NCBI RefSeq assembly: GCF_028641065.1
Contig: NC_073387.1
Span: 22,010,001-22,074,000, forward strand
Origin: Leucoraja erinacea
Lineage: Eukaryota
Direction of reading: 5' to 3'
Length of the DNA stretch: 64,000 nucleotides
Part shown: piece after piece, positions 5,160 to 53,817 of the stretch
Layout of the letters: every line of letters starts with the position of its first letter
How positions within the stretch are numbered: position 1 is the first letter of the stretch
Translations under genes and position numbers: made by a program
The notes under the pieces: model-generated
Told to the model about the DNA's origin: nothing
What the model saw: the letters and a program-made list of their open reading frames with translations, nothing else
Database searches by the model: none

Positions 5160-7535
5160 TCATTGCGCCTGAGACGTGGGAGCGCCGCATGGCTTCAAGA
5201 AGAGAAAATCACTTTTCGCTGACTCTGGAGACAGGCAGACCGAGTATTGATGCGGTTCCGGCACACGGACAACCCGTCCTGTCCCGGGATAGCGTAAAGT
5301 TTCCTCCATGGCAGGCCTTCCATTAAACGTGCCCTGCGAATCTCCGCGATTGTAACAATAACTGGGGGTGTTATACCCTTGGATGATACTTCTATCCTGT
5401 TTACACTTGATCCCAATCAACAGAACGATGATCAGAAGGAAGACAACGGAGGTGCAACTGAAAATGATGATTAAGTAAACATTTGGATCAGATAAATATC
5501 CCGAATTTTTCACCAAGGTACTGCTTTCCGTGATTCCTTCAGTACTGTTCTCCAAAACGCTAATGTTCATTGTAACTGTACTGGACAGGCTTGGCTGCCC
5601 ATTGTCCTTCACCAAGATGACCAGCGTGTGTACAGAAATATCTGTCTGCAAAATACTGCGCGCTGTTCTGATTTCACCTGAATTTTTCGTAACGGTGAAC
5701 AAAGTGGGATCGGTAGATTTCACCATCTGATAAAAGAGCCGTGCATTCTGACCAGAATCTTCATCAGTTGCCATTATCTTGGTGACCAAATACCCTTGAC
5801 CCGCTGACCGGCGCAAAACCTCTGCTGATCCACTTTGTTCTGAAGGTGAAACAATTACGGGCGCGTTGTCATTTTGATCCAGGATGATCACATTCACCGT
5901 GGCGCTGCTGCTCAATGGAGGCACCCCAGCGTCTCGGGCTTGTACGTTAATCTGGAAGTTTTTGAGTTCCTCATAGTCAAATGACCGCAACGCATAAATG
6001 GTACCGTTCATGGAGTTAATGGCCAGGTAAGTGGACACTGGTAGATTTTGGATGAAATTGTCCACCAAAGAGTAAGAGACATAGGAATTCTGCTCCAGAT
6101 CAGGATCTAGAGCAGTTAGTACGAAAATCGATGCGCCGGGTGCATTGTTCTCCATCACATATACGTTATAGGTTGATTCAGCAAACCGCGGGGCGTTATC
6201 GTTTACATCGGTTATTGTAATATGGATGGTTTTATTTGACGTCAGTGAAGGCGATCCCAGGTCCCGGGCTAGAATTGGTAATTTAAACTCAGAAATTGTT
6301 TCACGGTCCAACGTTGCACTGGTAATTAATTTATAATGGTTCGATGATGTCTGTAGGCTAAATGGGATATTCTTGGGTAGCTCGCAGCTGATTTGACCGT
6401 TCTCTCCAGAATCCCGGTCAATAACATCAAAGAACGTTATGAATGTCCCTGGCGGAGCATTTTCCGGGATTTTGTTGGAAGCTGATGTCACCTTAATCTC
6501 AGGCGCGTTATCGTTCACGTCAATGACCTTGATCAGCACGTTAGAATGTCCGGCCATTGCGGGTGAACCGTGGTCCACAGCTTGAACAGCAAGAGAATAG
6601 CTGTTTGCTTCTTCAAAATCCAGCGGTCCTTCAACTCGAACCTCCCCACTATATGGGTCTAAACTGAATAAATGACGCGCTCTTCGCAAATCAACATCAC
6701 TGAAAGAATATGCTATCTCAGCATTCAGCCCTTCGTCCAAATCATTTGCTTTGACTTTCAGCACCAAGGTACCATGTGGTGCATCCTCGCTTACGCTGAC
6801 CCTGTAAATGTCATCATCAAACACAGGCGCATTATCATTGAAGTCCAAAACAGTAACAAGAATCTGAGCTGTCCCTGTTCTCTGAGGAGTGCCACCGTCT
6901 GTCGCAGTGAGCAAGAGCTGAAAAGAAGATAGCAGCTCTCGGTCCAGTGACTTATCTAACAGCAACTCTGGTATAAGAACATCGCTCTCGGTTCTGTGTG
7001 TTTTGATACTAAAATACTCGGTGAAACTGATTGTGTAGGCGACGACAGTATTTATTCCAATATCAGGATCTTCTGCCCTCTCGAGACGGAAACGTACCCC
7101 GGGTGCACTCGCTTCCGATGTCTGTAATACGATGCTGCCGTTTCCGAAAGTAGGTGGATTATCATTGACATCAAGAATCTCTACTACACCGCGGTACACC
7201 TCTAACGGATTTTCCAGTGTTGTTTTAAAAGACACGGTACACATTTCCGCTTGCCTACAGATACGTTCTCTGTCGATTCTTTCACGAATAGATAATATTC
7301 CATTGTCCAAACTAACCTTCATGTATCGCCCTCCGTCATCGGAGCTCAGTCGGAATTTGCGAGCTGACAATTGCCGTACATTCAGGCCCAGATCTTGAGC
7401 GATATTTCCAACAAATGCCCCTTCTTCTTTTTCTTCGAGTATAGAATAACGCAATTGCCCGGAAATTAGATCCGGTGCACATATCAGAAGCATGAATGCA
7501 ATCTCGTTAAAAGGAAACCTCGGTCCGTACGCCAT
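5160..7535 (-). CDS. Protocadherin variable-type exon V2 (complete, stop-terminated)
   Basis: ORF 5160-7637; likely start ACAATGGCG at 7535 (MAYGPRF). Six EC repeats with DRE/DxNDN/AxDxG motifs, TM segment, YSVCLSPESAKSDFLFLKP tail. Confidence 0.95.
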   Translation of the reverse strand: MAYGPRFPFNEIAFMLLICAPDLISGQLRYSILEEKEEGAFVGNIAQDLGLNVRQLSARKFRLSSDDGGRYMKVSLDNGILSIRERIDRERICRQAEMCTVSFKTTLENPLEVYRGVVEILDVNDNPPTFGNGSIVLQTSEASAPGVRFRLERAEDPDIGINTVVAYTISFTEYFSIKTHRTESDVLIPELLLDKSLDRELLSSFQLLLTATDGGTPQRTGTAQILVTVLDFNDNAPVFDDDIYRVSVSEDAPHGTLVLKVKANDLDEGLNAEIAYSFSDVDLRRARHLFSLDPYSGEVRVEGPLDFEEANSYSLAVQAVDHGSPAMAGHSNVLIKVIDVNDNAPEIKVTSASNKIPENAPPGTFITFFDVIDRDSGENGQISCELPKNIPFSLQTSSNHYKLITSATLDRETISEFKLPILARDLGSPSLTSNKTIHITITDVNDNAPRFAESTYNVYVMENNAPGASIFVLTALDPDLEQNSYVSYSLVDNFIQNLPVSTYLAINSMNGTIYALRSFDYEELKNFQINVQARDAGVPPLSSSATVNVIILDQNDNAPVIVSPSEQSGSAEVLRRSAGQGYLVTKIMATDEDSGQNARLFYQMVKSTDPTLFTVTKNSGEIRTARSILQTDISVHTLVILVKDNGQPSLSSTVTMNISVLENSTEGITESSTLVKNSGYLSDPNVYLIIIFSCTSVVFLLIIVLLIGIKCKQDRSIIQGYNTPSYCYNRGDSQGTFNGRPAMEETLRYPGTGRVVRVPEPHQYSVCLSPESAKSDFLFLKPCGAPTSQAQ

Positions 7536-7836: not shown

Positions 7837-9021
7837 TATGGTAGACTTTAAATTGTGGCATACAACCAGAACATGTATCAGTCAATGCTTCATTTTTGTT
7901 TTCAGCATATATCTTCGAAAGTCATCGTAGGCGTTTTGAGGCATTTTGACATAAACTATCAAAGTTTCACTCAGATTGTTTGAATTGTTATTATTGCTCC
8001 GTAAATACCTTCTAGTTTGATAAAGCATGTTGTAGAGATAAATCTTCATTGTTGTTCCATCAGCACACTTGCAGTCAACCGTGAAATTAATGGTTTCAGG
8101 GAATGAAAGGGTGTAATGGTTAAAATATATTCAGTTCAAGATAATAAAAAGGGGTATACATTTCTACAGACTATTTTAACGGGGCTGAAGTAAACTTGAT
8201 AAATAAATGCGTAAAGCAGGACTCTAGAAAACATTGAAGACTGTGCGTTTTTGTTCGTTCATGGAGAAGGCACGCGGAGCCAACAATGGAGTGCTACATT
8301 GGTCTACCTTAGATTCTTCAATATCCATTTGGGAACATCAAAATGGTGAATTTTGGTGAATTGTGAATTTGGAAAATGGTGAATTGCTTAACGTTTCGTC
8401 GACTCGGACTATCCTTGCTGACTTTACTTTCAACTGAACGTTATTCCCTTATCATGTATCTATGCACGGTAAATCGATTGAATGCAATCTTGTATTGCCA
8501 TTTTGCTGACTGGTTAGCATGCAACAAAAACTTTTAACTCTATCTCAGTACACGTAACAATAAATTAAACTGATCTGACTAAACTGAACGAAACAAATAG
8601 TGAATTGCTAATATCTTTTCTCGGCATCAGTTGATTTCTTGGTTGGAATTAAATTAGAGGCGAAGAAATGCCAAAGTATCCAAGATATATTCAAATAAAG
8701 TGAGTTCGGTATTCCGACTGTGCATGCCCGGTCATAGGTCACCAGCTATAAACAGTCTCGGCAACGGTGGTGCTGCATTGTATGCAGGCTTGCGTTTCGG
8801 CCGTGGGCGGGGTCGGGCCCGGCTCTCCGTCGCTGCGGGCGCTGTTGAATTGCTGCTGGACAGTCCCCATCTGAACCCCGGTGTCCCGTCCCTGTCCGGG
8901 GTGGCCCTGAGCTGGCTGGGCAGCCCCGGACTTGCAGCCGGTGCTGCAGCTGCTGGCTCCAGCTCGGCTCTGCCTGTCCCGCCCGGTTGGCCTGCAGCAC
9001 TCTACCTCCAACCCCCTCCCG

Positions 9022-9700
9022 TCAGTCCGACACCGAGGTCCTACTGAAGATGGGCATGCGCCAGCCGTGCTCGAAGGGGCGACTCGGAGCCTGGTCGGAG
9101 AGTCTGCGGACGGGCTCCTGCCGGCCATGGGCAGACCGGGCGCCCGCTGGAACTGCTGGTCCTGCTGGTGGTGCTGGCGGTAGCAGGAAATTCCGCCCCC
9201 TTCACTTGCCCAGCCCCAAACCCAGACTCCGGGCTAGCTCTAACTCCAGGTCGAGGCTGAAAGCCGCCCGCAGCGCAGCCCAGGAGGCCGAGCCCAGGTT
9301 GGCGCTGACGCAGGCGAGGCCCTCGCTCCTCCTCTGGGTTGTGGATGAAGTGGCAGCGGGTACCGTAGGGGCTGAAGCCGGTAGTTTGCACGTAAGGTGG
9401 CTTGTACTTGCGGTGGCTTGTAATTGAGGAGCGCAGCTCGGCCAGGCCATGGGGGAACTGGCACTTGTCGCCGTAACGGCCCATCGGGGAGCGGGTTCCC
9501 CTGTTGTTGGAGCGGGATTGAGCTGGAATTGCCGCTAGCTGTGCGCTGATTCACCGTGCTGGCTGTTGGTCTGGGGCTCCTGGTGTCGTTGGTCCGGGCT
9601 GTCAGTTGACCCGGCGGGAGAGACGGTGAGCTGGGTTTGGCGCTTCTGTGCGCTGACGGGGCCTAGGAGCCGGTGTCCCGTCGGCCTGGACGTCTCCGGC
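9022..9700 (-). pseudogene. ZFP36/TIS11-family (tandem CCCH zinc finger) pseudogene fragment
   Basis: Pieces in shifting frames: DVQADGTP..RLSRR (cf. DRKAVGTP..RRHS); RYGDKCQFPHGLAELRS..HRKYK..GFSPYGTRCHFIHNPEEE; GSESPL; C-terminal RMPIFSRTSVSD* (cf. RLPIFNRISVSE / RLPIFSRLSISD). Zinc ligands are lost, with frameshifts and deletions. Confidence 0.88.
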
Positions 9701-9750
9701 CGACCCCCGGGCGGTCGATCCTGTCTGCGGATGAGGCGGATGAGGCGGAT

Positions 9751-9810
9751 CTCCCCCCCCCCCCCCCCCCCCCCCCCCACCCCCCCCCCCCCCACCCCCC
9801 CCCCCCCACC
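9751..9810 (+). repeat. Interrupted poly-C tract
   Basis: About 60 bp of C with sporadic A. Confidence 0.9.
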
Positions 9811-10555
9811 TCCCCTCGCATCTCCCACTCGCATCTGCCCTCTCTATCTGCCCCCTGACAAATACAAACTTGAAAAAGCTACACTCACTGAATCTACAGC
9901 ACTTCGATCGATGTTTATTCGGAGTACCGAACTCGCTTGTTACTCTGACTAAAATGAGCGCAACTTGGAATGGAAGCATACGTTTGTGGTGGTGAAGTAG
10001 GCTAATATTCTTCCAAAGACACCTTGCAGAGATGAAAGTGATAAAAGATTCTGAAAATTGATTTTATTTTTTTCGGCACATCATTTAGGGTCTGTCTGAT
10101 CTACTCAGATTCCCATATCCAACAACCTATGTCCTATGATAGGTGAGGTTTCGGGTCGGGACCTTTCTTTAGACAGTATGAAGAAGAGTCCCGACCCCAA
10201 ACGTCACCTATCGAAGGTGGACAAAAATGCTGGGGAAACCTTTCTTCGGGCCGAAACCTTTCTTCATTTAATCCAGCATTTTGTGTCTTTCCTTGGTAAA
10301 CCTGCATCCGCATTTCCTTGGTTCTAACTTTTGCCATTATTCTGTGTATGCTAGAGATGCTTCTTGTGTTCTGACTGTAATCTGCTCCTTTGACATTGTT
10401 GATGGAGCCACTGAGTATATCCGCTGCTGTCCATCGAACATTTCTCGTGAATTTGAAAGCACGGGTGCACTAGGGAATCAGATAAAGGCTTCAAAATATT
10501 CCAGTGTTGTTTCTACTACCATCACTCAGCAATGTTTATATTCGGATTGATTTGG

Positions 10556-11185: not shown

Positions 11186-12218
11186 AAAAGTATTTGCGCA
11201 CATTCGAATCCAGTGGACGCTGACGTTTATTGTGGAAGGTCACGATCTACACGGGTCATCAAGTACACGCACACATTTTATATCCGCTCCTCCTCTACCA
11301 GTCATACAATTCATTTTCACTCACCCAGCTCCTCCTTCTGCTCATCATCCACCACTACCTCCTCTCTAATCCCTCCAAACCCCCCCCCCCCACCCCCCCC
11401 CCCAACCCCCCCCACCCCCCCCCTCAACCCTCAATTGCCAACACGAACCTTGCTTGCCTATACTTTATTTTATCTTTCCCATTTTACATTCTTATCGGTT
11501 TCCATCATCTCATTCTTTTTCACCTGTTAACTCCCGCTCTGTGACCATCCCCATCCTTTGGTTTGCATCTGCCAACCAACACTTCCTTTCCTGGATTCCA
11601 CTTGCTGACACTTGCCTCGCCACTTTCATTCACTTATTTCTACCAGCATAGTCCAGTTTGGAGGAAGGTTCCCGACGCGAAAGATTATCTGTCCACATCC
11701 CCGCACAGTTGTTTCCCCACCTGATGAGTCTCCCGCCAGCTCGTTTTATATTGTACTATATATCAGCATCCGCATCGTGTGTTTCTGGTTCGTTTTATAT
11801 ATTAATTCCCATCATCCATGTTTGTTATTTAGCTATATCCTCTGTATCTATCAGCACTTCAAATGGTATATGCTAAGGACGAACTTTGTTCCAGTATTTT
11901 CTTTAAACCAGAAAATTTACGGTAACAAGCAAATTGATACAGCCAAATTAATGTAATTCATCCTATAGCAGTGTATATTTGTCCGTCGTTTAATGATAGG
12001 CAATTTCTCAGTTGACTAATCCCACTATCAGGCGATGGTACTTTATTTGCTAACAGTTATATATTTTTTTAACCATAATAACAAATGCACTATTTAAACG
12101 AAAGAGAAAAAAAATGCACAAAATGAATATTTCCTTAAATATTTTACTTACGAATGATACACATCCCTCGAGATAAAAATGACACCCAAATAATATGCCC
12201 CTTCCCTGCGGTTACTCC

Positions 12219-18955: not shown

Positions 18956-20937
18956 TCATTGCGCCTGAGACATGGGAGCACCGCATGGCTGCAAAAATAG
19001 AAAATCACTTTTCGCTGACTCTGGAGACAGGCAGACCGAATATTGATGCGGTTCCGGCACGCGGACAACCCGGCCAGTCCCAGGATAGCGTAAAGTTTCC
19101 TCCATCGCATGTCTTCCTTTATACGTATCTTGCGAATCTCCACGATTGTAACGATACCTGGCAGAGTTATACCCTTGGATAATACTTCTGTCCTGTTTAC
19201 ACTTGATCCCAATCAACAGAACGATGATCAGAAGAAAGACAACGGAAGTGCAACTGAAAATGATGATTAAATAAACATTTGGATCAGAGAAATATCCCGG
19301 ATTCTTCACCAAGGTGCTGCTTTCCGTGATTCCTTCAGTACTGTTCTCCAAAACTCTAACATTCATTGTAACTGTACTGGACAGGCTTGGCTGCCCATTG
19401 TCCTTCACCAAGATGACGAGAGTGTGTACAGGAGCATCTGTGTGCAAAATACTGCGAGCTGTTCTGATTTCACCTGAATTTTTCGTAACGGTGAACAAAG
19501 TGGGATCGGTAGATTTCACCATCTGATAAAAGATCCGTGCATTCTGACCAGAATCTGCATCAGTTGCCATTATCTTGGTGACCAAATATCCTTGACCCGC
19601 TGAGCGCGGAAGGCCCTCCTCTGCTGCTGATGCACCTAGTTCTGAAGGTGAAACAATTACCGGCGCGTTGTCATTTTGATCCAGGACGATCACATTCACC
19701 GTGGCGCTGCTACTCAGCGGAGGCACCCCAGCGTCACGGGCTTGTACATGGATCTGGAAGTTTTTGAGTTCCTCGTAGTCAAAGGATCGCAACGCATAAA
19801 TGGTACCGTTCATTGAGTTAATGACCAGGTAAGTGGACACTGGTAGATTTTGGATGAAATGGTCCACAAAAGAGTAAGAAACATAGGAATTCTGCTCCAG
19901 ATCAGGATCTAGAGCAGTTAGTACGAAAATCGATGCGCCGGGTGCATTGTTCTCCATCACATACACGTTGTAGGTTGATTCAGCAAACCGCGGGGCGTTA
20001 TCGTTTACATCGGTTATTGTAATATGGATGGTTTTATTTGAGGATAATGAAGGCGACCCCAGGTCCCATGCTGAAATTGGTAATCGATATTCAGAAATCC
20101 CTTCACGGTCCAACGTGTCACTGGTAACTAATTTATAATGGTTCGATGATGTCTGTAGTCTAAAGGGGATATTCTTGGGTAACACGCAGCGAACCTGACC
20201 GTTCTCCCCAGAATCCCGGTCAATAACATCAATGAAGGTTAGGAATGTTCCTGGCGGTGCATTTTCCGGAATTTGTTTGGAAGCTGATGTCACCTTAATC
20301 TCAGGTGCGTTATCGTTCACGTCAATGACCTTGATCAGCACGTTAGAATGTCCTGTCATTGCGGGTGAACCGCGGTCCACAGCTTGAACATCGAGCGAAT
20401 AACTGTTTGTTTCTTCAAAATCCAAGGGCCCTTCAACTCGAACCTCCCCACTATCTGGATCTAAACTGAATAAATGACGCGCTCTTCGCAAATCAACATC
20501 ATCGAAAGAATATGTTATCTCAGAATTTAGCCCTTCGTCCAAATCATTTGCTTTGACTTTCATCACCAAGGTACCATGTGGTGCGTCCTCACTTACGCTG
20601 ACCTTGTAAATATCACGATCAAACACCGGCGCGTTGTCATTAATGTCGAACACAGTAATGTGAATCTGAGCTGTCCCTGTCCTCTGAGGAGTCCCACCGT
20701 CTGCCGCAGTAAGCAAGAGCTGTAAAGAAGATTGCAGCTCTCGGTCCAGTGACTTATTCAACAGCAACTCTGGTATGAGAACATCGCTCTCGGTTCTACG
20801 CGTTTTTACACTAAAATACTCGGTGAAACTGATCGTGTAGGCGGCGACGGTATTGATTCCAATGTCGGGATCTTCCGCCCGCGCGAGACGGAAACCTATA
20901 CCGGGTGCACTCGCTTCCGATATCTGTATGGCGATGC
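18956..20937 (-). pseudogene. Protocadherin exon V4, 5'-deleted (no promoter, signal peptide or EC1; EC2 to tail frame open)
   Basis: Homology to paralogues stops at IAIQISE (start of EC2) and jumps to spacer sequence (cttagatacttcaa) that lies ~740 bp upstream of the ATG in V3. Confidence 0.85.
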
Positions 20938-21025
20938 AAACTCTTAGATACTTCAAGATGTGCATTGGAAACATCGAAATGTGAAATGCCTAACCTTTTT
21001 TCGACTCTTTTGTTTCGCGATTTGA

Positions 21026-21341: not shown

Positions 21342-21889
21342 TGTACACTTGCTATATAGATATAAAGGTCCCGGCTAATGTTAACAAACCAAATATTTAA
21401 TTACTAATATCATTTACTTTTTTCGGCCGCCGTTGATTTCTTGGATGGAATTAAGTTCGAAAAGTGAAGAAACACCAAAGACTGAGCACGACTGCGCAGA
21501 TATATTCTTCAAATTACTTTGACTGCAGTGAGCCCAACTTGGAATGGAAGCATGCGTTTATCGTTGTCAAATCGAAGGTTAATATTCTTCCAAAGACACC
21601 TTACAGTGATCAAGGTGATGTAACATTCTGAAATATTTTTTCGGCATGTTATTTAGGGATGGTCGGCTCTCCTGAGATTGAAATACCCAACAACTTATGT
21701 CCTTTGATATGTGATGTTTCGGGTCGGGACCATTCAACAAACAATATGAGGAAGAGACCAGACCCGAAACGGCACCTATCCAAGTTCTCTCGGGATGCTG
21801 CCTGACCCATTGATATACTCTGGCGTTTAATGTCTTTCCTTGGTAAACCAGCAACCGCATTGCCTTGTTTGTAACCTCTGTCATTATTA

Positions 21890-22610
21890 CCATATAATAA
21901 CCATATAACCATATGACAATTACAGCACGGAAACAGGCCACCTCGACCCTTCTAGTTCGTGCCGAACACGTATTCTCCCCTAGACCCATATATCTGCGCT
22001 CAGATCATAACCCTCCATTCCTTTCCCGTCCATATAACTATCCAATTTAAGTTAAAATGATAAAAAACGAACCTGCCTCCACCACCTTCACTGGAAGCTC
22101 ATTCCACTCAGCCACCACTCTCTGAGTAAAGAGGTTCCCCCTCATGTTACCCCTAAACTTCAGTCCCTTAATTCTCAAGTCATGTCCCCTTGTTTGAATC
22201 TTCCCTACTCTCAGTGGGAAAAGCTTATCCACGTCAACTCTGTCTATCCCTCTCATCATTTTAAAGACCTCTATCAAGTCCCCCCCCCCCCCCCCCCTTA
22301 ACCTCCTGCGCTCCAAAGAATAAAGCCCCAACTTGTTCAACCTTTCTCTGTAACTTAGTTTGCTGAAACCCAGGCAACATTCTAGTAAATCTCCTCTGTA
22401 CTCTCTCTATTTTGTTGACATCCTTCCTATAATTAGGCGACCAACATTGTACACCATACTCCAGAATTGGCCTCACCAATGCCTTGTACAATTTAACATT
22501 ACATCCCAACTTCTATACTCAATGCTCTGATTTATAAAGGCCAGCACACCAAAAGCTTTCTTTACCACCCTATCTACATGAGATTCCACCTTCAGGGAAC
22601 TGTGCACATA
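21890..22610 (-). mobile_element. CR1-like LINE 3' part with (CCATATAA)n tail
   Basis: [54 protein letters not shown]. Same family as 63163-63964. Confidence 0.9.
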
Positions 22611-23422
22611 AACCTCTTTCTCCAGCGCCGGGAACAGTGGAGGCTGGAACCCGTAGGCACACTGGAAAGGGGAGAGCCCAGTGGCCGAGCTTGTCAGGGT
22701 GTTGTGGGCGTACTCCACCCACAACAACTGCTGGGACCAGGAGGAGGGATGCTTGGACACCATACACCGCAGCGCCGTCTCCATCTCCTGATTCTTCCTC
22801 TCAGTTTGGCCGATGGACTGGGGATGAAATCCGGACGTCAGACTCACGGTGGCCCCCACAAGCGTGCAGAACTCCCTCCAGAACACAGAGGCAAACCCGG
22901 TTGGAGACCACATCGACGGGGAGACCATGGAGTCTGAAGATGTGGAGTAACATGAGCTCAACAATTTCCTTGGCTGACGGAAGCTTGGGCAGAGGCACGA
23001 AGTGAGCCATCTTGCTAAATCTATCAACCACGATCAGGATGGTGGTGTGACCACTGGATGGGGGGCAGGCCGGTAACGAAGTCCAGGGAGATGTGCGACC
23101 ATGGTCGATGGGGTACAGGCAGTGGAAGCAGATGACCCGCAGGAGCTTGGTGTGAGACCTTGTACTGGTTGCAAACGGGACAGGCGTTGACAAACTCCCG
23201 AGTGTCCTCCTCCAGCGATGCCCACCAGAACCTCCGTAGCACCATCTCCTTGGTCCGCTGAATGCCGGGATGACAGGTGAGTCGAGAGCTGTGGGCCCAC
23301 TGAAGGACGTCGGACCGCAGGGCAGAAACCACAAACAGACGATCAGGGCATGCGCTGGTCCCGGCTGGTTCTCCAAGGCCGCCTTGACCTTCTCCTCCAC
23401 TTCCCAGGTGAGGGAGGCAACC
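22611..23422 (-). mobile_element. Ty3/Gypsy integrase fragment (inverted relative to its LTR)
   Basis: [19 protein letters not shown] (HHCC), [60 protein letters not shown]; frameshifted. Confidence 0.92.
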
Positions 23423-24085
23423 CAGGAGGTGTGGCTGTCGACCCAGGGTCACCCTTGAGGGTGAAGTCCAAGACGTTGGCACCCAAGTTCATCGGTCCCT
23501 TTGAGATCCAGAAGGTCATCAACCCAGCGGCTGTGAGGCTCACGTTGCCTCGTTCCATGCGGGTCCATCCAACGTTCCACGTGTCCAGAGTAAAGCCAGT
23601 CCGGGAGAGCCCCCTGGTCCCCGTAGTCCCTCATCCTCCACCTCCTCATCTCATCGACGGAGGCCCCGCATTTACGGTGCACCACCTCCTGCGCTCCCAC
23701 CGTCGCGGGAGGGGTCTCCAATACCTGGTCGATTGGGAGGATTACGGTCCAGAGGAGAGGTCCTGGGTTCCTGCTCGGCACATTCTGGATGCCTCCCTCA
23801 TCAGGGAGTTTCACCGGCGTCATCCTGACCAGCCGTCCAAGTCCGCCACTCCTAGAGGGGTCGCCGCTCCTGAGACTCGGTCCCCTCTTCCTCTGATGCC
23901 ATGGAGGAGGATGCGGACATGGATGGCTCGGACGAATATTAGCCCTCCTCCGGTCCCCCTCCTCCCACCCACCTCTGCGTGGGATTGGGATTTTCTTTAT
24001 TGTTTTATTTTTGTTTTGGGACGTCAGGAGCCGTCCCTTGAGGGGGGGGGGGCGGGGGAGGGGTGGGGGGGGGGGGGGGGGGTTC
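23423..24085 (+). mobile_element. Ty3/Gypsy (chromovirus-type) GPY/F and chromodomain C-terminus, 3' UTR and polypurine tract
   Basis: [53 protein letters not shown]; G-run PPT at 24040-24082. Confidence 0.92.
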
Positions 24086-24762
24086 TGTCACAGTCTGCCC
24101 TCTCCTTATTCTCATCCACTTCACCTCCCAGTGCTTTTCCACCGGTCCCTCCTTCTCCTCACCTGCCTGCCTGCCACTCCCCTCTCATCAGCCCAACTCT
24201 CCTCACCTGTTGCACTCAGTTGCCTCTGATCACCAATTAACCCGGTATATAGACTCTCCTCACCGTTCACACACAGTGCCAGATTGTTCTCAGCATTCAT
24301 GCAAGACTCTCCAGCGATTTCCCGACTGCCTACCCGGATTCGAACCTGCCTGCCCCTGATCATTCCGTCCTGTCGTCTTCCCGGATATCGCCTCAGCCTT
24401 CTGTCCCCGACCACGGCCTTCATCCCATACCTGGTTTCTGTCTGCCTCTCTCCTGGGCTGTTTGGTGTATCCCTGCAACGGCTCCTCGACTTCCTGCCTG
24501 GCTTCGACTTTCCTTTCGTCTGTCCCTCGCTGGTTTGTTTGCATCGTGTGTTGGATCTCCTGGTTACCAGACTTTCCGCTACCCCGACTACGTCTCTTGC
24601 CTGCCCCTCTTCGGAACCCTCGCTCAATCCTGAGCCTCTGTGTGAGTACGGTGTACCCATTCCTGTGTTGCTACTCTGTGTTACAGTATCGTAATAAAGT
24701 GCATGACCAATTATACCTGCCTGATTCTGTGCTGCTATTGGGTCCAAGCTGTACCCGTTACA
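24086..24762 (+). mobile_element. Gypsy 3' LTR
   Basis: Begins TGTCA just after the PPT and ends TTACA. TATATA at ~24246 and AATAAA at 24693. Confidence 0.8.
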
Positions 24763-30150: not shown

Positions 30151-33100
30151 TACAGAAGTCCTAAATACAGCGCCATGGAACGCTTCAATTTTGTTTTCAG
30201 CACATATCTTCTAAAGTCCTGGTATGTGCGTTTACGGGGCAATTTGACCCGATATGTTAAAACATGTTTCACACAGAGTTTATGAATTTTTATTCTTGAT
30301 TCGTAAATGACTTCTAGCATGATAAATCATGTTATAGATGTAAATCTTCAGTGGTCCTCCATCACCACACTTGCCGTTGACCATGGAATTAATGGTTTCA
30401 GGAACAGTGTGTAATGACTTAAAATAAATTAGTTCGAGATACTAAAAAAGGATGTACAGTTACGAGACTGGGGTAAACGTGTTAAGTAATTGCGTAAAGA
30501 AGGATCCTCGGAAAGACCAAACATTGAAGACTATGTGCGCTTTTGTTCATCCATGGGGAAAGCAAGGTGGAGACTTCAATGGAGTGCTACATTAGTCTAC
30601 ATTACATACTTTAAGATTAATTTGGGAACATCGAAATGGTGAATTGCCTAACGTTTCGTCGACTCTTTTGTTTCGCGATTTGACTTCGTTTACTTTAGTG
30701 TCGAGAAATAACGCCTAAAAAGGCCCTGTGGCTCACCAACACGGCGCTGACCAGCGATCCCCGCACACTTACACTATCCTACCCACACATTGGGGACAAT
30801 GTACAATTTTACCAAGGCAATTTGCCTACAAACCATTACGTCTTTCGAGTATGGAAGAAAACCCGAGCGCCGGAGAAAACCTGCGCAGGTCACGGCAAGT
30901 ACGTACAAACTCTATACAGAGAGCACCCGTAGTGAAGATCGAACTCGGGTCTCTGACGCTGTAAGGCAGCAAGTCTACCGATGCGTCACCGTGCCGCCCT
31001 GTATACTTGCTATATATATATATAAAGGTCCCGGCTAATGTTAACAAATCAAATATTTAATTACTAATATAATTTTCTTTTCTAGGCAGCCGTTGATTTC
31101 TTGGATGGAATTAAGTTCGAAAAGTGAAGAAACGCCAAAGACTGAGCACGACTGCGCAGATATATTCTTCAAATTACTCTGACTGCAGTGAGCCAACTTG
31201 GAATGGAAGCATGCGTTTATCGTGGTCAAATCGAAAGTTAATATTCTTCCAAAGACACCTTACAGTGATCAAAGTGATGTAACATTCTGAAATATATTTT
31301 CGGCTTATTATTTAAGGATGGTCGGAGCTCCTGAGATTGAAATACCCAACAACGTATGTCCTTTAATATGTGATGTTTCAGGTCGGGACCATTCAACAGA
31401 CAATATGAGGAAGAGTCCACACCCGAAACGGCGCCTATCCAATTTCTCTCGGTATTTAGCGTCTTTCCTTGGTAAACCAGCATCCGCATTGCCTTGTTTG
31501 TAACTTCTGTCATTATTCCCTGTATCCTGGAGATGCTTCACGTGTTCTGACAGGAATCTGCTCAATTGGCCTTGTCGGTAGAGCCACTGACGATATCCGC
31601 TGCTGTCCATCGAACATTCCTCGTGAAATTGAACGTATGAATGCACTAGAAATTCAAATGCTCGCTTCAAAATATCCTAGTGTTGTTTACACCGCCACCA
31701 TTCAGCAATGTTTAGATTATGATTGATTCGGTCAAGGTTGCACAGAGGCAGAGTTGGAGCCTAACAGGGAGTGTGTACATTCTCCCTGTGACCGCGTAGG
31801 TTTTCTCCGCCTGCTCCGGTTTCCTCGCGCATCCCAAAGACTTACTGGTTTAAAATTTAAATGGCTTCTGTAAAAAATGAAAAATGTCCCCGTGTGTAGG
31901 ATAGTGCCGGTGTACGGGGTGATCGATGGTCGGTGGGCTCGCTGGTCCGAAGAGCCTGTTTCCACGCTGTATCTCGAAGCTTAAACTAAAGTCAGAAATG
32001 CGACTTTTGCGCACATTCGAACCCAGTACACGATGACGTATATCGTGGAATGCCGCGATCTGCCCGGGTCCTCTCACGCACATATTTTAATTCCACACCC
32101 TGTCGACCCGTCAGATTGTTCCTTTCCGCTTCTACAGCTCCTCCTTCTGCCCATTATCCACGATTACATCCCCTGTGATCTCCATGATCATCCCCCATCA
32201 CCCCCCACTATAAATAACACCCACCCACGAACCCTGCTCGCCTAAACTTCTATATTTTCTTTCTCACTTTACCTTCTTATCGGTTTTCATCATCTCATTC
32301 TTCTTTTTCATCAATTAACTCCCGCCTTTGTGATCATCTCCATCCGCTGTTTTGCAAACTCCAGATTCAATTAGGAAGAGTGGATCAGTGACACCTCTGC
32401 GATAGGGAATGTGATTCACATTTTCAAGCTTCCATTATAAAAACTTGAAAGTTTGGGCGATTGCGTTGTTCAGAGCTGTTCGTTGGTAGCAACGATTTGT
32501 CTTACAAATGTTCTGTATAAAGCGCATTGGCTGTCAAGCTTCAGGGCAGGAGTCCATAATCATTTGGTGCTCAGCCTCTGGATGCATGTGTCGACGTTGT
32601 CTGCACAGTAAACCTCAACGACTGCGGTTGGTGTGACCTAAATCGGGGGAGAATCCATAAATCGGATATGTACAAAGGGACTTGGAAGTGCTGGTGCAGG
32701 ATTGCCTAAAACTTGTTCTGCACATCGAATTGGTAGTAAAGAAAGCAATCGTAATGCTAGCCTTCATATCGAGAGGGCTAGTATACAAAAACAAGGATGT
32801 AATGCTGAGGCTCTATCAGGCGCTGATCAGGCCGTATTTGGAATATTGTGAGCAATTTTGGGCACCATATCTGAGGAAGGATGTTGATGGCTCTTGTAAG
32901 GGCCCAAAGGAGGTTTACAAGAATGATCCCAGGAATGAGTAGGTTAACGGATCTTTAAGAAAGAACTGCAGACGCTGGAAAAATCGAAGGTAGATAAAAA
33001 TGCCGCTCAGTCGGCGAGGTAGCAGCCTTAACATATGATGAGCGTTTTAGAAGAATAAGGGGGTGGGGTTGGGGGGGGGGGGGGGGGCTGGGACCTTATT

Positions 33101-40581: not shown

Positions 40582-40636
40582 TCCCCCAAACTTCAGAATT
40601 CTACCCTGCACCAACCCCCCCTAAGTTCCCCCCCCC

Positions 40637-40670
<34 letters not shown>

Positions 40671-42062
40671 ACCCCACCCCCCCCCCCCCCCCCCCCGCCC
40701 CCCCCCACCACCACCACCACCGCCGCCACCATGGCTATAGATGTATACACCGAAACACATACCCCCGACCATGTATCAGCCCAATACTGATTAATTTCTT
40801 CGCATGACACGTGTCACACACTTCACTTTCTTCCCCCTTTGTCGTCCAAGCAACCATATATTTCTCTCATCTCTGGCTCTTGTGAGAACATGTCAAGGAA
40901 CAAAAGGCATGCAATGGAAATTTACATTCGAACATGCACACTATTAATGCTTCATGGAGAACTCGCTTAGATGTTAAAAGGACCTTTAATTGTTTTTCTT
41001 CACGTTAACATTAAAGACACACGCCACCCTCTATTATTCTCTCCATACCTGAAGCCAGGATATTTCCTGCATTTGTATAATCTAGCAAATATTATTCATT
41101 TTCGTCCATTGATTCATTCTCGTGTCTTTGCTAAGCAATTTCAACTGAACAACATAGAATTGTAGAAATATTTCCGTATAAATATCATTCCAGCCAACGA
41201 CAGTTCATTTTAAGGCTAGATCATCAGTTCTAGTTTCCAAAACGTGTCTCATGATCGAACAACTAAATCCATCGATGCCTATCGAATTCCCTTTTGTGGG
41301 TAGAGATTTATCTTTCCTTCGTGGCCTTAGAGACCCCTTCACTCTCTCAGAATATTCGAATAACATTTGAATTCTTTTGAATAATGGACATCATCGTCCA
41401 TGCATTTATGTTCCATAATGCTCATTGCAAAAGTACAGTTTCGCTCTATTGTCTCTACTTATACTTTCGAGCATGCACACTAAATTTCCATTCTGGTATG
41501 CACACTATTACCACTATTAACACTCTAATTAGCATTATTGGATGCTGATAGGGCCTTTAGTCCTTTTTTCCCCTTACGTTGGAAGTTAAAGACTTACATG
41601 TGGCCACTATATCTCCGAGATTTCAAGCAACTGACATGCGATTAGCAACACAATTGGGAGAGTACGTTAAAAAAAAAATGACCGGCAGCTCACTAACAAG
41701 TAAAACAAACACCTAAGTCGGACGCCGATGTTACTTATTACGGGAAACATCTATCCTTCATTTTGTCTTTTTGGGCATCAATATTTATATTGCAGCACGA
41801 ACTGGGTTCTTTAAGATAAATGGACTTGTTTTACTGCCATGCTGGAATCTTGAGCGAAACCCAAAGTACCGTAGTAACCCAGCGGGTCAGGCAGCATCAG
41901 TGGAGAACATGGAGAGGCCGCGTTTCGGGTCGGATTCATTTTTACGTCTCTGGAATTTTGGGGCTTTGTTACCATCAGTTTTTAGAACTTAATTTTCACC
42001 GATTCCATTTCCTGGATTTAAAAACAGAAATCCAAGATTTGATGTCACCGGGCCTTTACAGA

Positions 42063-53159: not shown

Positions 53160-53193
<34 letters not shown>

Positions 53194-53817
53194 GGGGGGT
53201 TCCAAATGCTATTTATGGTAATTAATATTTCTGGAGAGACAGCGAATATCAAGTGTCAAATAAACGATGATTGAGCTTCTGAAAATATCTACACCAGTCA
53301 AGAATATAGTTCATTGTAATATTTCTGTTTAAAAAAAGGGAGAATAAATCCGGTATCACTCATCGTGGCTGAATAATGTTAAAGATTTACAAATGGAATT
53401 CAAGGAGTACACTTAAATTATTTGACAAATTTTATGCCCGAATTCTGAAAGTCACATAACATGCTGGAAAACGCAACAGACCAAGCAGGACATGTGAAAA
53501 GAAAAGGACTTAGAATTTCATTGAGATAGACACAAAAAGCTGGAGCAACTCACCGGGTGAGACTGCATCTCTGGAAAAAATGAGAAAATAATTTTCTCCA
53601 GAGATGCTGCCTGACCTGCTGTCTGACCCGCTGACTTGCTCCATCTTTCTGTTTCTATTTTCAGTTTGAATCAGCATCTACAATTCTTTCCTACACATTC
53701 GTTTCATTATCTAGACGTGATGCTTTTTTGCTTTATTTGCATAAATGCTGCTTTTCTAGTTTGTCTTTTGTGTTTAAGGATAGTAGAAGAGAATACAGGG
53801 AAATCAAGAAACAACAA

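Follow-up and report, generated by a model that had tools for sequence, protein, structure and literature searches.

An insertion between protocadherin exons

The stretch of little skate (Leucoraja erinacea) DNA analysed here, a 64-kb window, is a clustered protocadherin array containing eight long minus-strand frames, and Pfam identifies the two frames nearest the insertion described below as cadherin exons. One frame of the array (18956-20989, minus strand) encodes 677 aa starting mid-ectodomain, whereas its neighbours run for ~800 aa from an ATG; frameshifting of the exon or a fault in the assembly may account for this. The window also holds a Ty3/Gypsy remnant of chromovirus type (22610-24762), in which the minus strand encodes an integrase zinc-binding domain and the plus strand SH3 and chromo domains, indicating an internal inversion. 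This remnant retains a purine run and one TG...CA LTR (~24086-24762), and it presumably sits inside a LINE fragment.

Upstream of a protocadherin variable exon, ~1.16 kb from its ATG at 7535, the spacer is interrupted by a block of 1,244 nt (8697-9940), whose ends are uncertain by 1-3 nt. Its flanks (8575-8696 and 9941-10100) can be aligned without a break to two paralogous spacers, at ~21514 and ~31174, in which the block is missing; identity is 82% (225/273 and 225/272). The corresponding empty sites lie at 21506-21525 and 31166-31185 (plus strand), and the two spacers are 94.5% identical to each other. This comparison of one filled with two empty sites upholds the 1.24 kb block delimited in an earlier, sequence-only reading of the locus. 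The junction motif that this reading quoted as uninterrupted in both spacers is exact at 31168 and carries one substitution at 21508. The body of the insertion is 66-70% GC, as compared to 35-42% in the flanks, in keeping with its earlier description as GC-rich. It includes a poly-C run (9753-9815, plus strand, 94% GC), the length of which may be an assembly or slippage feature. The window has further long stretches of C or G at 11380-11430, 24040-24082, 40627-40730 and 53161-53200. These may reflect assembly slippage, so that some of the element's single-base indels could stem from sequencing error. To the right of the poly-C run is a subterminal segment (9816-9918), AT-richer from 9859 on, that is probably the element's own sequence; no second copy of it was found in the 64-kb window. 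Outside the insertion, the spacer contains an imperfect 85-nt palindrome (10133-10217; 42-nt arms, 81%) that is kept in the paralogues (21701-21780 and 31360-31439). It is probably an old repeat fragment, and its Rfam matches are far under threshold, as are all five weak matches returned by an Rfam scan of 8400-10400, which lie far below the gathering score.

The insertion is bounded by terminal inverted repeats (TIRs) of 20 nt. The left arm (8698-8717, plus strand) and the right arm (9919-9938, minus strand) match at 18/20 positions, and both start within 1-2 nt of the breakpoints. A window scan allowing up to three mismatches gave 2 matches, as compared to 0.00 expected from 100 shuffles, and this was the sole pair in the window; by the same rule, 18/20 was reached by 1 of 19,935 random position pairs. 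The inverted repeats reported previously at the ends are thus beyond chance. A 12-nt palindrome, TCGG-n4-CCGA, lies inside each arm (8706-8717 and 9918-9931). The small hairpin described at the right end is therefore present, but it is not specific to that end, as it also occurs within the left arm. Just inside the left TIR (8729-8755, plus strand), and antisense to the gene fragment that the element carries, GGTCA-T-AGGTCA is followed by a TATA-like CTATAAA; the former resembles a DR1-like nuclear-receptor site, and the whole arrangement may be a matter of chance. The element ends read AAAG and CTTGT, with the arms starting AAG. No second copy of either end was found in the 64-kb window, and the short TIR motifs are absent from the supplements of PMC4482050 and PMC11417382.

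A ZFP36-family fragment joined to non-parental sequence

The minus strand of the insertion carries a fragment of a ZFP36-family gene (9022-9478). In a frameshift-aware alignment, 9478-9025 corresponds to the C-terminal (3') half of an elasmobranch member of the family, with 117/149 aa identical to Rhinoraja P0090 and 121/149 to P0001. Over the 17 proteins compared, the alignment scores were 463 and 460 for Rhinoraja longicauda P0090 and P0001, versus 373 for Pristis, 310 for Mobula, and 168-232 for sharks, ZFP36L1 and ZFP36L2. The cargo begins in the middle of finger 1, contains four frameshifts and ends in RMPIFSRTSVSD and a stop codon (9060-9022). Pfam detects a zf-CCCH remnant (E 1e-4, above cut-off), so that the finger remnants and the C-terminal ZFP36 motif named in the sequence-only reading were both recovered. 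The C-terminal motif of the family is its NOT1-binding domain (PMC12350847). The window copy encodes no working ZFP36, and the element is devoid of ATTTA (ARE) motifs.

The source of the cargo was placed by a quick tree of 28 rows, which has a long cargo branch, is without tetrapod ZFP36/TTP and includes one ZFP36L2. The cargo groups with Rhinoraja, P0001 and the little skate protein P0192 (see below) at 100 SH-aLRT, within an elasmobranch clade (99 SH-aLRT) that stands apart from ZFP36L1 and L2. A second little skate protein, P0191, covering 16% of the columns, fell unresolved among rays. A GLGLGK insertion is present in the cargo and in two skate-type sequences and is absent from Pristis and Mobula, which indicates that the capture is later than the split of skates from other rays. 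The intact parental gene is seen in Rhinoraja and other elasmobranchs, on contigs of 15.6 Mb (Rhinoraja), 19.6 Mb (Pristis), 149 Mb (Mobula) and 95 Mb (Narcine). It is without the Tis11B N-terminal domain and is probably a TTP orthologue, although the tree is without tetrapod TTP and, in PDB, ZFP36L2 (126 bits) outscores TTP (110 bits) as a match to its finger domain.

On either side of the cargo lies GC-rich sequence. Piece A (8718-9021, minus strand) follows the cargo stop codon, is common to P0191 down to at least 8748, and is either parental 3' UTR or element sequence. Piece B (9485-9752, minus strand) is also CpG-rich, is common to P0192 from 9690, and is not parental N-terminal coding sequence on either strand. 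It meets the cargo in mid-finger 1 at a chimeric junction (9479-9484, minus strand), where no splice acceptor is present. The ATG that opens the cargo frame (M-G-R-Y) comes from this piece. Piece B contains a 31-nt direct repeat (9519-9549 and 9627-9656, 84%). At 9725-9752 (minus strand), immediately upstream of the piece, sequence rich in pyrimidines and closing with CAG resembles a splice acceptor. Pfam searches of 13 further frames from pieces A and B gave only a poly-Pro match (E 0.88), and the ESM Atlas had no usable match for one piece A frame. The missing parental N-terminal half (118-120 aa) was also sought in both pieces on both strands, as a test for deletion or a twin-priming inversion. 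Seven of eight tests scored at or below the shuffle maximum, and the eighth was marginally over it (45 vs 42) in a low-complexity alignment with only 12 shuffles; a hidden N-terminal half was accordingly rejected.

A dead, 5'-truncated and intronless coding fragment is what processed pseudogenes of the ZFP36 family look like, and skate repeats are described as LINE-dominated in the accessible account of the genome (PMC10115646), so an ordinary LINE-made retrocopy with inverted repeats placed by chance has to be considered. The locus differs from such pseudogenes in being TIR-bounded and chimeric and in having neither of the LINE hallmarks, a 3' poly-A or a long target-site duplication (TSD). 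In agreement with the earlier reading, the element contains no poly-A, the longest A run on the cargo strand being 3 nt. The captured part of the ZFP36-family gene falls within one exon, which makes the missing introns uninformative. Upstream of the cargo are ~460 nt of non-parental sequence, part of which is common to another copy, and the TIRs exceed chance. A retrocopy is also contradicted by the B junction that the copies have in common, and we regard it as extremely improbable.

Further copies of the chimeric unit in the little skate

A near-length protein search gave 26 matches from 327 candidates, of which P0191, P0192 and five intact ray or skate orthologues were aligned to the element and the other 19 were left out. 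P0191 and P0192 are NCBI-annotated Leucoraja erinacea proteins, named 'ZFP36-like' and 'ZFP36L3-like', on contigs of 87,982,229 nt and 139,679,016 nt, respectively. P0191 matches the element at 151/229 aa over 9484-8748 and P0192, which has an intact second finger, at 82/123 aa over 9690-9302; jointly they cover ~940 of its 1,244 nt. The matches extend beyond the coding fragment. P0192 aligns to piece B at 41/64 aa (score 147; highest of 60 nulls 55), and P0191 aligns to an off-frame reading of piece A at 50/84 aa (score 196; highest of 60 nulls 56), with homology that reaches to ~30 nt from the left TIR arm. Both proteins contain the junction between piece B and the finger, as P0191 starts at M-G-R-Y and P0192 crosses the join. 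Because this non-parental junction is common to P0191, P0192 and the window copy, the unit must have spread after capture. Between 9128 and 9018, P0191 also stays in one frame with the window copy (26/32), whereas aligning the intact gene over this interval requires two frameshifts and an 8-aa gap. Such derived lesions, common to P0191 and the window copy, argue for one damaged master and against independent retrocopies. In the finger region where they overlap, P0191 and P0192 are identical at 46/57 positions (80.7%), which together with their different contigs shows that they represent two loci. One of them could be the orthologue of the window locus. Mobula and Narcine carry intact orthologues on large contigs, so contig size alone is no marker of a dispersed copy. 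When a finger-free reading of 9662-8742 was compared with 1.84 billion representative proteins, the one match was P0191 (E 2e-18); P0192 was missed. That search of a finger-free frame revealed neither a different cargo nor a copy in other species, and gene models catch few such copies.

In the parts of Tan et al. (2021, PMC8277862) available to us, most animal Pack-TIRs are single-copy products of gap filling, and multicopy ones amount to 4 cases (1.4%) in 100 reference genomes. As gap filling is the commonest origin in that account, a tiny TIR element (~130-200 nt) might have inserted first and later been gap-filled from a multicopy ZFP36 chimera that spread otherwise, by retroposition or segmental duplication, so that the TIRs are local and were not the vehicle. 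The TIRs of the other copies, known as proteins, are not visible, which leaves room for this scheme. It requires two separate mobile processes, however, and gap-fill donors mostly lie within 15 kb or on the same chromosome according to the same text, while the window contains no donor. The homology of P0191 to ~30 nt from the left arm likewise speaks against it, and we consider gap filling unlikely while giving it some weight. We instead favour spread of the loaded element itself, in which case P0191 and P0192 would have the TIRs of the window copy and occupy distinct target sites.

Target site and relation to known elements

To examine the target site, all cut positions and lengths of duplication were set against the empty site. 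The number of changes needed is one for a TSD of 0-1 nt, two for 2-4 nt, three for 5 nt, four for 6 nt, six for 8 nt and seven for 9 nt. The 1-nt model duplicates T, and the models of 2-4 nt correspond to AT, ATT, TTA and ATTA. In place of the ATT of the empty site, ATA and GTT adjoin the two arms, and a decayed 3-nt duplication therefore fits without an indel. The element is ~10% decayed, an estimate from the 117/149 aa identity set against a rough calibration, and the proxies for the empty site are 18% diverged; TSDs of 0-4 nt are thus possible and TSDs of 8-9 nt are excluded. The sequence-only reading had described insertion at T|T without a clean TSD. Its observation is accurate, as no clean TSD is present, but this does not establish that a TSD was absent, given that a decayed duplication of 2-4 nt needs just two changes. 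Nearly all cut-and-paste elements make a TSD, and the lack of a clean one counts against a Pack-TIR origin.

An unclassified TIR element might instead integrate at T|T without duplication, using the palindromic TIR cores as binding or nicking sites of a recombinase-like or HUH-like enzyme. The zero- and 1-nt junction models need the fewest changes (one vs two), the 12-nt palindrome is found in both arms, and the ends differ from the Spy consensus and target and from the Crypton layout. Against this, there is a single decayed junction with proxies only 82% identical, at ~10% decay it is not surprising for a 3-nt TSD pair to have two substitutions, and palindromes inside TIRs are common. We judge an element of this kind to be quite unlikely; for the Pack-TIR interpretation, a short target duplication of 0-4 nt would fit.

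The ends were compared with those of described groups. The hAT, MULE, P and Merlin elements, with TSDs of 7-9 nt, need five or more changes at the junction and were rejected. The TSD lengths of hAT and Merlin are as stated in PMC4482050 and that of MULE as given in PMC8277862. The short TIRs and the AT-rich target of 0-3 nt resemble those of the PHIS superfamily as outlined in PMC4482050 and PMC4122938 (PIF/Harbinger TWA, ISL2EU A|AT|T, Pangu ANT, Spy AAA|TTT). The empty site holds AATT, ATT and TTA, and the targets of PIF/Harbinger, ISL2EU and Pangu (TWA, AT and ANT, with TIRs that begin with A or G) each need two changes. The skate arms start with AAG, unlike the GG or AG of the PHIS groups as described in these sources, none of which fits exactly. 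Spy was set aside, as neither its GGANNNNG termini nor its AAA|TTT target (per the description in PMC4122938) is found, as were Cryptons, which in the account of PMC3212892 have 4-6 bp terminal direct repeats and no TIR, whereas the skate element has TIRs. Helitron1 (HLE1) elements, outlined in PMC11417382 as having a 5' TC, a 3' hairpin with CTRR and an A|T site, were also rejected, because neither orientation gives TC...CTRR.

A Helentron-derived non-autonomous element (HINE/HLE2), with the gene piece captured during rolling-circle transposition, was the other option raised in the sequence-only reading. Insertion at T|T without a TSD is among the most parsimonious junctions, and in the portions of PMC4067079 and PMC11417382 at hand, HINE, DINE-1 and HLE2 elements combine a T-rich target, no evident TSD, palindromic end repeats, internal repeats and gene-fragment capture. 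The subTIRs of mite HINEs are palindromic with T-rich insertion sites, and HINEs can hold microsatellites and central repeats, as does the insertion here (PMC4067079, as far as its text was accessible). The architecture is nevertheless different. HINEs are asymmetric, in that 38-60 bp separate the 3' subTIR from the end and a distinct stem-loop palindrome follows it, according to the same two sources; the skate element is symmetric, its arms come within 1-2 nt of the breakpoints, leaving no room for a distal stem-loop, and its only terminal hairpins are inside the arms. Moreover, Table S10 of HELIANO records detection in 4/8 chondrichthyan genomes, little skate among them, and all of its chondrichthyan rows are HLE1, though HELIANO calls a family only when an autonomous copy is present. 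Repbase contains Amblyraja families. A Helentron origin is not supported by the layout, and we hold it to be very unlikely. At the level of titles and abstract openings, with few subscription papers covered, the literature gave no report of this element, which Repbase or Dfam may already hold.

Taken together, the element is probably a decayed, multicopy, non-autonomous, TIR-bounded DNA transposon of skates of the Pack-TIR type. It has TIRs at both boundaries, host-derived non-TE sequence inside with the parental gene elsewhere, and, as for multicopy Pack-TIRs, one chimeric structure at several loci (P0191 and P0192); it fails no Pack-TIR feature that was tested. The multicopy animal examples presented by Tan et al. 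(PMC8277862), Pack-hAT-N8_XT of frog and Ssk-FB4 of Drosophila, are likewise non-autonomous and TIR-bounded, with a host gene inside and dispersed copies of one chimera, and DNA-level capture in a TIR element followed by spread is the account given there for such elements. As presented there, they differ from the skate element, whose cargo comes from the coding part of a gene for a post-transcriptional regulator and has a broken frame common to the copies. The skate element also has 20-nt TIRs with a palindromic core and no clean TSD. The supplements of that study include one cartilaginous fish, the elephant shark, with 0 Pack-TIRs, and contain no match for skate or ZFP36. The earlier proposal of a Pack-type mobile family that spread ZFP36 pieces, as opposed to an ordinary retrocopy, thus gains two more copies of the chimera, a non-parental junction and, in one copy, derived frameshifts, and it loses its Helentron option. 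An autonomous partner with the same ends, also envisaged there, did not emerge: neither a transposase nor a RepHel was found in the 82 window frames scanned (including 59 further ORFs). The window has 102 ORFs of at least 95 aa; those outside the scan belong to the Gypsy remnant, as overlapping frames, or to six protocadherin exons, counting frames within or opposite these exons.

The following course of events would account for these data. After skates split from other rays, a ZFP36-family piece starting in mid-finger 1 was joined to the non-parental piece B. The join may have arisen through template switching or gap repair acting on DNA within a short TIR element. Two copies show that a master had acquired frameshifts and, close to the C-terminus, a deletion by the time it was copied. 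The loaded element, whose dispersal is observed, may have been mobilised by a transposase acting in trans on the 20-nt TIRs and carried to what would be several chromosomes, with one copy entering the protocadherin array. This copy has decayed by roughly 10%, leaving no functional ZFP36.

The element would stand outside the described cut-and-paste groups should further copies prove to be flanked by no TSD. In a more speculative extension, to which we attach an outside chance, the vehicle would be a vertebrate DNA element of an unclassified kind that has 20-nt TIRs with palindromic cores and integrates without target duplication, and it would have spread a ZFP36 minigene (a new ATG, one finger and the NOT1-binding tail) in skates, some copies of which may be transcribed as CCR4-NOT decoys or regulatory RNA. 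If the acceptor-like stretch at 9725-9752 is real, transcripts of the minus strand, those of protocadherins or others, could take up piece B and the cargo as a spliced exon. Among animals, multicopy TIR transposons with a gene cargo are a rarity. The skate case is traceable, with coding cargo from an mRNA-decay regulator and common lesions by which the copies can be ordered. On their sequences, the two little skate 'ZFP36' gene models are likely broken (frameshifted) copies of the chimeric unit and not real paralogues, which bears on counts of the gene family.
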